A DNA stretch of 40,137 bases from Escherichia phage vB_Eco_Bam. A model generated the notes under the pieces. The model searched no databases. It was not told where the DNA came from and was given only the letters and a program-made list of their open reading frames with translations. Positions within the stretch are counted from its first letter, which is position 1. Each line of letters starts with the position of its first letter. Of the stretch, positions 36,045 to 40,137 are shown one piece after another. Location of the stretch: sequence record OW991346; one strand, given 5' to 3'. The position numbers and the translations under genes are program-made.

Positions 36045-36250
36045 GTCTTGAACTTAACTTTGGAGATGCTGTAATCCGCTCTGCCCCTGTTGGTGGGGCG
36101 GTTGCAACAGACTTAGTAGCAAGGTTCATGGGTCTAACACTTCACGAGTGGTTCTATGTAGCGGCCATAGGATACACTTGCATTCAAGGGTGGGCAGTAA
36201 TCTATAAGACTCTCAAGAAGTACAAGGAGGATAATGTAAATGACACCTAA
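36041..36250 (+). CDS. gp17.5: holin (T7 gp17.5-like)
   Basis: 69 aa from ATG 36041; LNEWFYVAAIGYT resembles T7 holin (LNEWFYVAAIAYT). Confidence 0.8.
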   Translation: MSLELNFGDAVIRSAPVGGAVATDLVARFMGLTLHEWFYVAAIGYTCIQGWAVIYKTLKKYKEDNVNDT

Positions 36251-36485
36251 AGAGTTTGAGCTATTACTTCAGGAACTAGACTACGAAGCTGCAAAGCTGA
36301 TGTTACAAGACCTGAAGAACGACGAGAAGCGTAACCCTCAGTTGTTTAACGCTGTGGTTCGCATGTTGGAACGCCACAAGCATACAATTGCAAAGGTTGT
36401 TCCTGATGAAAGCATTCTGACCAGTCTTGCGTCTGAACTACCAGACCTGACTGAAGATGAACAATATGGAGGTATCTTACAATGA
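36240..36485 (+). CDS. gp18: terminase small subunit (T7 gp18-like)
   Basis: 81 aa; RNPQLFNAVVRMLERHK matches T7 gp18 (RSPQLYNAIVRMLDRHK); RBS AAGGAGG. Confidence 0.9.
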   Translation: MTPKEFELLLQELDYEAAKLMLQDLKNDEKRNPQLFNAVVRMLERHKHTIAKVVPDESILTSLASELPDLTEDEQYGGILQ

Positions 36486-36695: not shown

Positions 36696-36941
36696 ATGAC
36701 CGAAAGTGATAACGCTACGCAAAATCTGAGTAGAAGTCCTTATGGATTATGGTCAGAAATTGAAGGATTGCGTAGTCTGGCAGACACTTTGATAGGTGGA
36801 GAGATGCCTATGGAGGTGTACAACGCTCTGACTCCTGAGCAAAAGAAGATTACCCTTAACGTAACCAAGGCGTGTTCACAATGTGCTACTGCCTTAGAGA
36901 AGTTTCAAGAGGAGGTACTAAATGTCGGCTGCCCAAAGTAA
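36696..36941 (+). CDS. hypothetical protein (T7 gene 18.5 position, no transmembrane segment)
   Basis: 81 aa; strong RBS AAGGAGGT; follows the RNase III-like site as T7 gene 18.5 does, but has no hydrophobic N-terminus. Confidence 0.55.
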
Positions 36942-38694
36942 CAAAGACAAACTCATTCTAGCTCGCCTGAAGGCTGACTTTGTGGCGTTCCTCTTTGTCC
37001 TGTGGAAAGCGTTGAACCTTCCTAAGCCTACTCGGTGTCAAATCGACATGGCTAGAAAGCTCGCTGCTGGCTCTGAGAGACGTTTTATCCTTCAGGCATT
37101 TCGTGGTATTGGTAAGTCCTTTATCACCTGTGCGTTCGTTGTATGGAAGCTCTGGAACAATCCTCAGTTGAAGTTCATGATTGTGTCTGCTTCAAAGGAA
37201 CGTGCTGACGCTAACTCCATCTTTATCAAGCGTATCATTGACCTGTTACCGTTCTTGCATGAGCTGAAACCTAAGCCTAACCAACGTGACTCTGTAATCA
37301 GCTTTGATGTTGGTCTAGCGAAACCTGACCACTCTCCTTCAGTTAAGTCTGTTGGTATCACTGGTCAGTTGACTGGTAGCCGTGCTGACATCCTGATTGC
37401 GGACGACGTTGAGGTTCCTAACAACAGTTCCACACAGGCTGCTCGTGACCGCCTAGGTGAGCTTGTAAAGGAGTTTGACGCTATCTTGAAGCCTGAGGGT
37501 ACTATCATCTACCTTGGTACTCCACAATGCGAAATGACGCTGTACAGAGAGCTTGAGAACCGTGGTTACACTACTACCATCTGGCCTGCTCGTTATCCTA
37601 AAGACCGCAAAGACCTTGAGTCGTACGGCACACGCTTAGCTCCTATGCTTCTGGAAGACCTTGAGGAAAACCCTGAGGCCATGTGGTGGACACCTACTGA
37701 CCCTGTACGCTTCGATGATGAAGACCTGCGGGAACGTGAGTTGTCATATGGTAAGGCTGGCTTTGCGTTACAGTTCATGTTGAACCCTAACCTGAGTGAT
37801 GCCGAGAAGTATCCACTCAAGTGTCGTGACTTCATTGTGGCGGCTGTAGGTGATGACTTTGCGCCTTTGACCTACCAATGGCTACCTAACCACGAGAACC
37901 TAGCTGGGAACGTCCCTGCGGTGGGTTTGAAGGGAGACACATACCACTACTACCACGTAGCAGATAAGCGCACTGCGGCCTTCTCAGGCAAGATTCTGGC
38001 TATTGACCCTAGTGGTCGTGGTAAGGATGAAACAGGGTATGCTGTCTTGTACTTCCTCAATGGCTACATCTATGTGATGGCTATGGGTGGCTTCCGAGGT
38101 GGTTACGATGATGAAACCCTTGAGAAGCTAGCTAAGGTTGCCAAGCGATGGAAAGTCAATGAGGTTCTGGTGGAAGGTAACTTTGGTGACGGTATGTACC
38201 TCAAAGTGTTCTCTCCGGTACTGGCTCGTATTCATCCTTGTACGTTGACTGAGACTAAGAGTAAAGGTCAGAAGGAACAACGTATTGCTGATACCATCGA
38301 ACCTGTCTTAGGTGCTCACCGTATGGTTATCACTGAGGATGCAATTCGTCACGACTATCAGACTGCTCGTAATATTGATGGTCAGCATGACATTAAGTAT
38401 TGCTGCATGTATCAACTTACACGTCTGACTCGTGAACGCGGCGCATTGGCTCACGATGACCGTCTGGACGCATTGGCAATCGGGGTGGCATATTTCCTTG
38501 AGTCAATCGAGAAAGACGCTCAGAAAGGCGCTGAGGAGCTTACAGAGGAATGGTTGGAAGACCAACTCAATGCTGAACGCATCAGTGACCAACTGAGTGA
38601 CTACATTGTGCATCAAGGCGATGTGGAAATCCGAGTAGGTTACCAAAATGAGGACGCATATTGGGTCACTAACCTAGTTGGGTTTGACCGGTGA
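36922..38694 (+). CDS. gp19: terminase large subunit (T7 gp19-like)
   Basis: 590 aa; near-collinear with T7 gp19 ([81 protein letters not shown]). Confidence 0.97.
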
Positions 38695-38750
38695 TATGTT
38701 AACAAAGATGGTTAAATGTTAACGAATTGAGTAGATTTTTGACCATTTTG

Positions 38751-38772
38751 AATTAACACCCACTATTGGAGT
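38751..38772 (+). promoter_or_regulatory. phage RNAP promoter after the last gene (phiOR analog)
   Basis: AATTAACACCCACTATTGGAGT; no ORF downstream; followed by a structured repeat region. Confidence 0.75.
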
Positions 38773-38782
38773 ATACGACAAT

Positions 38783-38863
38783 AAGAGGGAACATTAAGTC
38801 TATAGACACTAGGAGAGTCGACCTTAGAGTAGGCACTCAGTCTGACCTTAGTGTTCCCTCTTT
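38783..38863 (+). repeat. inverted repeat AAGAGGGAACA ... TGTTCCCTCTT flanking a 59-bp spacer
   Basis: Perfect 11-bp arms at 38783-38793 and 38853-38863; spacer contains palindrome GTCTATAGAC and direct repeat GACCTTAG(A/T)GT; directly after the last phage promoter. Confidence 0.7.
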
Positions 38864-39039
38864 GTCTTGGGAGTATTCTTCATTATTAGAATAACTCCCT
38901 TCTCTTTGTGTAGAGACACTGAGGCGTATCTTGGAGGTGATTGTATGAGGAAGACTACCCTTATGGTCACCTACTATGTGGTTAAAGTTACCTTCTTGGT
39001 TTACCTGTTGGTAACCCATGCTGGCGCTTAATCTCGGTA

Positions 39040-39510
39040 TCCTTATCAGTCTACCTACGATTAAGTGTCTAGTGTCAATACCCTTATGTTAGTGACCTTA
39101 TGTGTTAACCTTAGGGTAGGTTGGTCTTAGTGTCGCCTACCTTATGTTGTTAACACTATGTTAGTCCATTTTGTACAACACTAGAAAAATCTGAGTGACC
39201 ATCTCACATATCAAGACCCATTTAATCCCCCCCATAGGGGTCAAACCTTATGTCCATCCCTTATGTCATTCCCTAAGTCTATCATTTTGTCTATCAATAG
39301 GTTTTAACTCTCGGTTGAGGTGGGGACAATAGGTGGAGACTATGGGTTTGTATCTCTATGTCTCCCTATCTGTATAGACCTTGTGTCTCCTCTCTATGTC
39401 TCTACCCTTATGTCTCCTCTCTATGTTCTATCAACTAGGCAGCATCCTACCTTATGTTAGACCCTAGGTCAATAACCTTATGTCATAGACCCTATAAATA
39501 GACCTTATCT
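39040..39510 (+). repeat. array of ~12 short direct repeats (consensus CCTTATGT) in the genome-end region
   Basis: Motif recurs at irregular spacing, e.g. ACCCTTATGTTAGTGACCTTATGTG, CTACCTTATGTTG, AACCTTATGTCCATCCCTTATGTC, CTACCCTTATGTCTCC, CTACCTTATGTTAG, AACCTTATGTCATAG; includes a 27-bp imperfect tandem at 39379-39432. Confidence 0.7.
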
Positions 39511-39521
39511 ATATAGACCAT

Positions 39522-39543
39522 AATTAACACCCACTATTGAAGA
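39522..39543 (+). promoter_or_regulatory. phage promoter-like element with altered initiation region (phiOL analog?)
   Basis: AATTAACACCCACTATTGAAGA: recognition region perfect, +2 is A instead of G. Confidence 0.4.
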
Positions 39544-39574
39544 ACAACAATCTTAATTATTTTAATATTGAGTA

Positions 39575-39603
39575 TTGACATTAGAACTTAGTGTCTATAG
39601 TAT
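39575..39603 (+). promoter_or_regulatory. sigma70-type host promoter (A1-like)
   Basis: TTGACA, 17-bp spacer, TAGTAT; AT-rich UP-like tract (TCTTAATTATTTTAATATTGAGTA) immediately upstream. Confidence 0.6.
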
Positions 39604-39703
39604 GGCGTCCATCGAAGGGAAACACGGAAACGGTGCGACTCTGAGATTACAGCGTCAAGCGGTACAAGTAGACAGCCTGCTAAGTCATACGAACAACAGG
39701 TAC

Positions 39704-39732
39704 TTGACAACAGAAACAAGAAACACTAAGAT
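39704..39732 (+). promoter_or_regulatory. sigma70-type host promoter (A2-like)
   Basis: TTGACA, 17-bp spacer, TAAGAT; same hexamers as recalled for T7 A2. Confidence 0.55.
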
Positions 39733-39774
39733 ACACCACAACGAAACAACAACAGAAACACCAACAAATAGGAG

Positions 39775-39803
39775 TTGACAATGTTCAAGTTAAAATGTAA
39801 AGT
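39775..39803 (+). promoter_or_regulatory. possible sigma70-type promoter (A3-like), overlapping a small ORF start
   Basis: TTGACA, 17-bp spacer, TAAAGT; overlaps the RBS and ATG of the 39781 ORF, so one of the two calls may be wrong. Confidence 0.3.
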
Positions 39804-39924
39804 GATGCCAATCCACAACAAACAGGGTCACACAGTATGTACACCTGATGGATTTGCGATGAATGCTCGTGTTGAACGACTGAAGCGTGAACTCAAGATG
39901 AATCGTATGCTGAACAACATCTAA
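39781..39924 (+). CDS. hypothetical small early protein
   Basis: 47 aa; RBS AGGAG 6 nt upstream of ATG; downstream of sigma70-type promoters; basic. Confidence 0.4.
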   Translation: MFKLKCKVMPIHNKQGHTVCTPDGFAMNARVERLKRELKMNRMLNNI

Positions 39925-40054
39925 TAGCTACGATAATCAAGCAACACTGCTGGTCTTGTTGTACTACGCAACTGCAAATGTAGTCGGGACGATGAAACTG
40001 CTATCCCTAAAGTTCTTTAACAATCTGGTATAAAGCGCATGTGTTGAGTTAGAA

Positions 40055-40100
40055 AGTGATTGACTCAAGGCTGCTGAATGTAGTAGCCTTTATGACAAGC
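40055..40100 (+). promoter_or_regulatory. RNase III-type processing site in the early leader (R0.3/R0.5 analog)
   Basis: ACTCAAGGCTGC-TGAATGTA-GTAGCCTTTATGA: same flanking consensus (ACTCAAGG...GGCCTTTATGA) with a divergent upper stem. Confidence 0.4.
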
Positions 40101-40137
40101 ATTTAATTTCAGCCACTATAAGATGGAGACAACAACA

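Follow-up and report, generated by a model that had tools for sequence, protein, structure and literature searches.

Does the non-coding stretch at positions 38695-39575 of the Escherichia phage vB_Eco_Bam genome (sequence record OW991346) hold the physical ends of the virion DNA, and if it does, where are they? The record was analysed over its whole length of 40137 nucleotides (nt), referred to here as the window. The stretch is very probably the concatemer junction of a T7-like (Studiervirinae) phage, present in a circular assembly with a single copy of the terminal repeat. It was assigned to the T7 type because a T7-type terminase is encoded upstream, the parts of the region follow the order known from T7 and T3, and both of the boundary motifs of phages with known ends are present. 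An initial inspection of the letters made without database searches (the sequence-only reading) had named the stretch as the expected place for the terminal repeat and the concatemer-processing signals, an expectation that the same three observations bear out. It had also held that the boundaries could not be set from one copy, which no longer applies, as homology sets them at a predicted 39202-39367.

Genomic context of the probable junction

The window begins at the ATG of a single-subunit RNA polymerase gene, an open reading frame (ORF) of 894 amino acids (aa) in which PF00940 and PF14700 were matched, and all large ORFs are encoded on the + strand. A small terminase (gp18-like, PF11123) is encoded at 36240-36485 (+) and a T7-type large terminase (gp19-like) at 36922-38694 (+), the latter matching PF22530 (Terminase-T7_RNaseH-like) with an E-value of 7.5e-40. 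In T7-like phages the two genome ends meet downstream of the last late gene and before the early promoters begin. Region 38695-39575 sits in this position, ahead of host promoter matches that start at 39575, 39704 and 39775, and was therefore rightly described as preceding the host promoters. The order of the parts is a phiOR-like promoter, a small ORF, a right-flank array, the terminal repeat, a left-flank array, a phiOL-like promoter and counterparts of the host promoters A1-A3, which is the order annotated in T7 and T3; the agreement with T7 in order extends to all of the junction parts, with the slot of gene 19.5 and the pause site included. A junction of this type would be expected to have a phage promoter on each flank and strong host promoters beyond, as is the case here. 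No intrinsic terminator was found in a scan of 38600-40137.

The 1.2 kb around the region is 99.9% identical to the corresponding sequence in phages Mak (OX001577.1) and Titus (OX090892.1), both of which are classified in the Autographiviridae, Studiervirinae, and the terminase gene is 100% identical. The records of Mak and Titus are closed circular permutations in which no terminal repeat is annotated and the start is not at a physical end. These two phages were the only matches to the region by megablast, which found no close relative with mapped ends, and an exact-protein look-up also returned two records, Mak and Titus only. Outside this pair, DNA identity to the nearest terminase genes is 77%, and the nearest entry in IMG/VR was Vibrio phage N4, at 80% aa identity. 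Distant BLAST matches to the region were confined to two conserved islands of ~60 nt each, located around the left and right junctions and near the ends of the matching records. As only ~60 nt are conserved at each junction, footprinting of the whole region is impossible.

Delimitation of the predicted terminal repeat

The boundaries were determined by alignment to T7 (160 base pair (bp) repeat), T3 (231 bp, annotated), JELG-KS1 (185 bp), Berlin (226 bp), A7 (177 bp) and TM1 (179 bp). The 185-bp repeat of the Aeromonas phage JELG-KS1 was found by PhageTerm and its ends were confirmed by Sanger run-off sequencing; Mak, Bam and Titus are listed in the same paper among the nearest relatives of JELG-KS1 (PMC10974468).

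On the left, T7, T3, JELG-KS1, N4, VP4 and A7 share a rule in which AAAAATCTGA(G/A)... is followed by A^TCTCA, where the caret marks the boundary, and the window conforms to it at 39185-39201 and then 39202. The sequence AAAAATCTGA(G/A)TG...A is located just left of the right-hand repeat copy in T7, T3 and JELG-KS1, and the annotated repeat begins exactly at TCTCA in T7, T3, JELG-KS1 and A7. In the window this part is represented by the conserved junction box AAAAATCTGAGTGACCA (39185-39201, +), directly left of the predicted left-end cut site. This box also stands directly before the repeat in T7, T3, JELG-KS1, N4, VP4, A7 and Berlin, and it forms the core of the sole stretch that BLAST detects in other genera. 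The box agrees with that of T7 at 16 of 17 positions (AAAAATCTGAGTGACTA in T7, ...CCA here), and the 22 nt of AAAAATCTGAGTGACCA^TCTCA are identical in JELG-KS1.

On the right, the repeat is followed at once by ATCTGT(T/A) in T7, T3, JELG-KS1 and Berlin, and in A7 and TM1 this boundary is shifted by 1 nt. In the window ...TCTCTATGTCTCCCT ends at 39367 and ATCTGTA begins at 39368, 166 nt after 39202 and within the expectation of 160-231 bp. These last 15 nt of the repeat, TCTCTATGTCTCCCT, are identical at 14 of 15 positions to TCTCTATGTGTCCCT of T3, which reads ...TCTCTATGTGTCCCT^ATCTGTT. The records of Vibrio phages N4 and VP4 begin exactly at ATCTGTAT and carry AAAAATCTGAGAGACCA^TCTCATAG ~175 nt before the end of each record, and in Berlin the right rule is exact and the left boundary is 1 nt off.

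The direct terminal repeat is thus predicted at 39202-39367, from TCTCACAT... to ...TCTCTATGTCTCCCT, with a length of 166 bp (165 bp with the C6 form of the C-run discussed below) and a margin of ± ~2 nt. This sequence is present once in the window, and in all likelihood the assembly collapsed two repeat copies into one, closing the genome as a circle; the virion genome is predicted to be ~40.3 kb, ~166 bp longer than deposited. Similarly to the repeat of T7, it starts with TCTCACA, has a C-run with ATAG ~25 nt in, and ends in ...TCCCT followed by ATCTGT, but it is 6 bp longer than the 160 bp of T7 and most of its interior is unalignable. The interior also differs from that of JELG-KS1. The Berlinvirus phages (Yersinia phages Berlin and Yep-phi, Shigella phage A7 and Escherichia phage P483) share the boundary motifs, but they belong to a different genus and their repeats, of 177-226 bp, have another interior (CTGTGGATAACT-type repeats in A7).

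The same arrangement was sought in IMG/VR contigs that encode related terminases. Four of 80 loci matched a strict regular expression written for the left junction, and a relaxed anchor (a TCTCA-like sequence plus the C-run) was matched in 12 contigs, most of the other loci belonging to more distant subfamilies or ending too early. All nine of the anchored contigs with enough downstream sequence had ATCTGT 125-306 nt past the left junction, compared to a background rate of 0.038 per 240 nt.

Both deposited records being closed circular permutations without an annotated repeat, packaging could in principle be headful or of another kind, in which case the region would be only an origin and promoter region and not a fixed-end site. 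This is extremely improbable, since the terminase carries a T7-specific nuclease domain and both boundary motifs are found here at a repeat-like spacing, with one of them unique on its strand; in JELG-KS1, the closest of the relatives whose ends are mapped, these two motifs delimit a direct repeat of 185 bp. Nothing observed pointed to physical ends elsewhere in the genome or to circular permutation. A T7-type junction with fixed ends is therefore the preferred reading of the region.

The sequence AAAATCTGAG occurs twice in the genome, compared to 0.08 copies expected; the sole other copy is located at 36721-36730, within an 81-aa ORF (36696-36941) just upstream of the terminase gene, and is not followed by TCTCA. 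This copy is probably a coincidence.

The ATCTGTA motif at the right boundary

The first bases past the predicted repeat, ATCTGTA (39368-39374, +), are the counterpart of ATCTGTT, the class II pause and termination signal of T7 RNA polymerase, for which the T7 concatemer junction is the sole natural site. Six of the seven bases match, and the motif is preceded by T (A, C or T being allowed at this position). Nine copies of ATCTGTW (where W is A or T) were found in the genome, eight of them on the - strand, and the lone copy on the + strand, which is the transcribed one, is that at 39368. JELG-KS1 and T3 show the same pattern: their lone sense-strand copies are at nt 186 and nt 232 respectively, in both cases the first base past the repeat, and there are three and four antisense copies. 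When the junction copies are excluded, the genomes of Mak, JELG-KS1 and T3 together have 0 sense versus 15 antisense copies (binomial p ~3e-5). Such avoidance of the sense strand is as expected for a signal that is read by the phage polymerase. The ATCTGTA form is common to JELG-KS1, N4, VP4, TM1, Berlin and A7, and ATCTGTT is the minority form. The motif resembles the class II signals (those of the concatemer junction (CJ), PTH and VSV) in six of seven bases, in having the natural CJ position and in being avoided on the sense strand elsewhere, but differs in that the seventh base is A and not T and that there is no downstream T-run. The architecture of the region, the conservation of its motifs and the strand avoidance of the pause motif are direct observations.

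Several points weigh against the interpretation of the region as a junction with these ends. Termination by T7 RNA polymerase in vitro is reported to be lost upon any substitution within the 7-mer, and pausing at ATCTGTA by the cognate polymerase is putative. The deposited repeats of TM1, A7 and Berlin deviate by 1-2 nt from the T7 rule, and in Yep-phi the boundary sequence is GACTGTA and the annotated repeat is longer by 7 nt, so an error of a few nucleotides is possible. The boundaries are predicted wholly from homology, the public assemblies being two circularly closed records, and analogy to T7 may have determined where the N4 and VP4 records begin, in which case these starts are not independent evidence. 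Finally, to our knowledge the function of the short-motif arrays that flank the repeat has not been established in any T7-like phage, T7 included.

Short-motif arrays flanking the repeat

Eight exact copies of CCTTATGT, all on the + strand, were found in 39082-39483. There are four copies, on both strands, in the other 39 kb, and the chance expectation for the whole genome is 1.2. Allowing up to one mismatch gives 11 copies in the region (adding those at 38959, 39379 and 39503), and there are a few variants with two mismatches, among them CCCTAAGT at 39271 and CCCTAGGT at 39462, so the figure of about 12 copies given by the sequence-only reading is a fair description. The right-arm array (39082-39147, +) has exact copies at 39082, 39096 and 39140 and is the counterpart of the right-arm CCTAAAG array of T7. 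Within the repeat, phased copies are present at 39246-39278 (+), with CCTTATGT at 39246 and 39259 and CCCTAAGT at 39271, spaced by 13 and 12 nt. The left-arm array (39379-39510, +) consists of CCTTATGT at 39406, 39450 and 39476 and variants at 39379, 39462 and 39503, and is the counterpart of the left-arm CCTAAAG array of T7. The 27-bp imperfect tandem that had been reported lies inside it at 39379-39430, with a period of 27, 2.0 copies and 92% matches.

The spacings in the window are 12-15, 27 and 44 nt, compared to 13 and 25-26 nt in T7 and 12-13 and 27 nt in T3. Copies of CCTAAAG in T7 and of C(C/T)TAAAG in T3 have the same distribution, with three CCTAAAG inside the T7 repeat. Arrays of a short motif on one strand, phased at ~13 bp and present on both flanks of the repeat, characterise the T7-type junction, and the 7-8-mer arrays of T7 and those seen here are alike in all of these respects; the motifs themselves differ at two positions (CCT-T-A-T-GT here, CCT-A-A-A-GT in T7). 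In Berlinvirus, CCTTATGT itself flanks the repeat on either side with a spacing of 13 nt, in eleven copies in Yep-phi and also in Berlin, A7 and P483. CCTTATG copies are located 59-199 nt left of the repeats of Berlin and A7, and the left-arm location of the array is matched in Yep-phi, Berlin and A7. The motif therefore varies by lineage: this phage and Berlinvirus have CCTTATGT, T7 and T3 have CCTAAAG, and N4 and JELG-KS1 have others (TTAGGT and GTATGT types in the latter). As judged from these comparisons, the CCTTATGT array is a lineage variant of a known feature and is not peculiar to this phage.

Two unrelated IMG/VR contigs of ~34-40 kb (L102 and L111) have an intergenic tatgtacggaCCTTATGTacgga array that holds the CCTTATGT 8-mer and is not beside a T7-like terminase or a terminal repeat. 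As the 8-mer can be found in such an unrelated context, it is not diagnostic when taken alone.

Whether the arrays have a role at all has to be considered, as the copies could have arisen neutrally, by replication slippage or by local duplication within a non-coding spacer, and have no function. A recent tandem duplication of 27 bp makes up part of the array, copy number ranges from 11 to 34 among the closely related Yersinia fPS phages (PMC5923468), and a 39-bp unit is repeated several times in Yep-phi, all of which would fit such an origin. It is nevertheless unlikely, although a real possibility, because the copies are all in one orientation, the ~13-bp phasing is common to T7, T3, Berlinvirus and this phage despite unrelated flanks, and copies are present inside the repeat and on both sides of it in every lineage examined. 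Furthermore, the same 8-mer occurs in Berlinvirus, a genus other than that of the nearest relatives of the terminase. The arrays could alternatively be iteron-type binding sites of a replication origin, as they are flanked by phiOR-like and phiOL-like promoters, which in T7 are linked with secondary origins. The arrays, however, bracket the terminal repeat and not the promoters, and no candidate initiator gene was seen; T7-type origins are generally made up of a phage promoter and an A+T-rich stretch, with no iteron-binding initiator. We regard an iteron function as highly improbable.

By analogy with T7, the arrays are most likely repeated protein-contact sites that would help to mark the junction. 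A narrower proposal, which is quite unlikely as it stands, is that the phased one-strand arrays could serve as interchangeable modules that are recognised by a protein of packaging or end processing, such as the small terminase. If this is true, a switch of motif between lineages with terminases otherwise nearest to those of another genus would amount to a change of packaging specificity, and a comparison of this phage with Berlinvirus, as a natural pair, could help to assign the arrays of T7 a function.

The C-run box near the left end

The C-run box CCCCCCCATAGGGG (39227-39240, +) lies 25 nt from the predicted left end and had been described as a C7-ATA-G4 hairpin. The sequence is as described, but the hairpin is not upheld. 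A run of C5-C8 is present 24-28 nt after TCTCA in T7, T3, JELG-KS1 (C7, 25 nt in), N4, VP4, A7, Berlin and the 12 IMG/VR contigs. In the 17 genomes and contigs compared, the C-run is always present 24-28 nt from the left end, and the length of the G-run that follows varies from 0 to 5. The run is C7 in the window and C6 in Mak (OX001577.1) and Titus (OX090892.1), which is the sole difference in 3.4 kb and may reflect either a sequencing error in the homopolymer or a genuine polymorphism. Poly-C tracts in the repeats of fPS phages are reported to be variable (PMC5923468).

[quoted passage not shown] The DNA fold of C7ATAG4, at -3.4 kcal/mol, is however no better than that of shuffled sequences (z = -0.32; 68 of 200 shuffles fold equally well), and the same is true of the perfect C5ATAG5 in T7 (z = -0.10). 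The stem is not formable in T3 (C8ATAGC4), JELG-KS1 (C7TATGGCCC) or N4 and VP4 (C5-6ATATACCC), the G-run varies where the C-run and its distance from the end are held constant, and the length of the C-run is unequal between the window and the deposited records. A functional hairpin is thus very unlikely and was rejected, as its stability is at the level of shuffled sequence and the pairing is absent in T3, JELG-KS1, N4 and VP4. CCCCCCCATAGGGG is better described as a conserved sequence box near the left end, and is possibly a protein contact.

A separate sequence within the repeat, TTAACTCTCGGTTGAGG (39305-39321), resembles the TTCG-loop stem-loops that are found mid-repeat in T7 (GTCAACCTTCGGTTGAC) and T3 (TTAACCTTCGGTTAACC), between which there is a compensatory change of C-G to T-A. 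TTAACTCTCGGTTGAGG is a weak palindrome (-1.1 kcal/mol, z = -0.16).

The right flank: promoter, leader and small ORF

The core of the phage promoters, TTAACACCCACTATTG, has 12 exact copies in the genome, including those at 38753 and 39524, and an extended alignment of 17 phage promoters has the consensus AATTAACACCCACTATT followed by GGAGA. The phiOR-like promoter for the phage RNA polymerase (38751-38773, +) has the exact core and reads AATTAACACCCACTATT followed by GGAGTA, with +1 at 38768. It is located 74 nt past the terminase stop codon, compared to 99 nt past gene 19 for phiOR of T7 and ~100 nt in T3. In T7, phiOR is a known replication origin from which transcription also crosses the junction, and phiOR plus the junction suffice for T7 to package a plasmid. 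Between the terminase stop codon and the phiOR-like promoter there are two copies of ATGTTAAC (38696-38703 and 38716-38723), each with the palindrome GTTAAC; the matching slot of T7 and T3 is occupied by repeated palindromes of the form TGCAT(A).

The leader of the phiOR-like transcript is predicted to be structured. The 11-bp perfect inverted repeat around a palindrome that had been noted was recovered as AAGAGGGAACA (38783-38793) and TGTTCCCTCTT (38852-38862), which extends to 16 nt at 94% and encloses the 10-bp palindrome GTCTATAGAC (38798-38807). It forms the base of a long imperfect stem-loop (38784-38862, +) with GTCTATAGAC in its interior. The RNA fold of 38769-38950 has an energy of -60.3 kcal/mol (z = -2.58; two of 200 shuffles were as good) and includes a short leader hairpin, GGGAGTATTCT...AGAATAACTCCC, at 38869-38899 (+). 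The leader architecture is the same in T7 (z = -1.5) and JELG-KS1 (z = -2.16), both of which have a short hairpin at the same relative position before the small ORF (GGTGAT...ATCACC in T7). As in T7, the small ORF and its Shine-Dalgarno sequence are thus preceded in the leader by a long and then a short hairpin. A search of Rfam at a permissive threshold gave no match for the phiOR leader.

A 12-nt perfect inverted match, CTATAGACACTA and TAGTGTCTATAG, was also observed between 38800-38811 and 39589-39600, 777 nt apart; its arms are in the loop of the phiOR leader hairpin and in the spacer and -10 of the first host promoter. The expectation for such a match is ~0.04 in a 1.2-kb region. In a transcript of the concatemer the two arms would bracket the entire junction.

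The small ORF is a candidate of 28 codons (38945-39031, +; MRKTTLMVTYYVVKVTFLVYLLVTHAGA) that is hydrophobic, is preceded by a strong Shine-Dalgarno sequence (GGAGGTGA at 38933-38940) and lies 177 nt downstream of the phiOR-like +1. The promoter at 38753, which the sequence-only reading had noted as having no gene behind it, is therefore present but not strictly geneless. The 28-aa product had no PHROG match, whereas gp19.5 of T7 (4.5e-25) and ORF52 of JELG-KS1 (4e-07) match phrog_2193, so no homology with gp19.5 was found. In contrast to the small ORFs of T7 and JELG-KS1, that of the window thus has no match to the gp19.5 family; it is a candidate positional analogue of T7 gene 19.5, sharing only its position, Shine-Dalgarno sequence and hydrophobicity. 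Mak and Titus have small 'hypothetical protein' coding sequences deposited over the junction (minus-strand MAK_047 and TITUS_045 to TITUS_049, equivalent to 38766-39778 of the window), some of which overlie the terminal repeat and the arrays. These are probably spurious.

Inside the candidate ORF is an inverted repeat, TGGTTTACC-tgtt-GGTAACCCA (38997-39018), which is centred 194 nt left of the terminal repeat. One is centred at a similar place in all of the comparators, 190 nt left of the repeat in T7, 184 nt in T3, 179 nt in JELG-KS1 and 160 nt in N4 and VP4 (1380-1398 in T7, 786-804 in T3, 1367-1405 in JELG-KS1 and 547-578 in N4, within the retrieved loci). The sequences are unrelated between genera, and between T7 (TGAT/ATCA) and T3 (TAGT/ACTA) there are two compensatory pair changes. 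The DNA fold of 38997-39018 has an energy of -4.7 kcal/mol (z = -1.57). As the distance range of 160-194 nt was picked after seeing the data, the correspondence is tentative. The inverted repeat may be the site of the 'hairpin end' intermediate of T7 concatemer processing, which was reportedly described by Chung, Nardone and Hinkle in 1990 and is said to lie ~190 bp left of the junction.

The left flank: promoters of the early region

The phiOL-like phage promoter (39522-39544, +) has its +1 at 39539 and an exact core, with GAAG instead of GGAG at initiation. It is located 172 nt past the repeat and 36 nt ahead of the first host promoter, and phiOL is placed likewise in T7 and T3. Between it and the first host promoter an A+T-rich stretch (39548-39574) can be read from the sequence; T7 has an equivalent stretch between phiOL and A1, and by this analogy we infer that it would be part of a secondary replication origin. 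Three strong host sigma-70 promoters, the counterparts of A1-A3, follow at 39575-39603, 39704-39732 and 39775-39803 (+; TTGACA, a 17-nt spacer, 10/12 matches). The phiOL-like promoter, the A+T-rich stretch and the three host promoters are the start of the early region. A consensus scan also gave a candidate leftward sigma-70 promoter at 39444-39472 (-; TTGACC, 17-nt spacer, TAGGAT, 9/12) within the left-arm array, a pattern match that is weakly suggestive of a counterpart of the leftward A0 of T7 and T3; A0 is annotated at nt 224 of T7, in the equivalent array, and inside the repeat of T3.

Proposed processing of the concatemer

For pausing, the positions of cleavage, the duplication of the repeat and the role of the arrays, we infer the following from T7 and T3. 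The order of cleavage and the hairpin intermediate are described for these phages as commonly given in secondary sources. The virion DNA would start at 39202 (5'-TCTCACAT...) and end at 39367 (...TCTCTATGTCTCCCT-3'), with the 166 bp present at both ends, and replicated genomes would be joined head to tail via the terminal repeat. The phage RNA polymerase would initiate at the phiOR-like promoter (+1 at 38768), transcribe over the repeat and pause at ATCTGTA (39368-39374), where the paused complex may help to bring in the terminase (36240-36485 and 36922-38694) and the prohead. The terminase would make the right end by cutting after CCCT and the left end by cutting between the box AAAAATCTGAGTGACCA and TCTCA, and the repeat would be duplicated by DNA synthesis between the right-end and left-end cuts.

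Implications

The biology proposed here is the established T7 scheme, and the region is a well-preserved, ordinary example of it in a phage lineage without mapped ends. The practical gain is one of annotation, as the analysis predicts the true ends (39202 and 39367), the genome length and the correct starting point for the record. More generally, in at least seven Studiervirinae lineages one copy is enough to delimit the repeat, with ...AAAAATCTGA-N7-^TCTCA as the left and ^ATCTGTW as the right motif. There is in addition a small comparative observation, that ATCTGTW is unique on the sense strand of the three genomes examined and that ATCTGTA is its commoner form. The pattern of avoidance fits the T7 model, in which pausing of the polymerase marks the junction, and most lineages use ATCTGTA and not the ATCTGTT that was studied with T7 polymerase.

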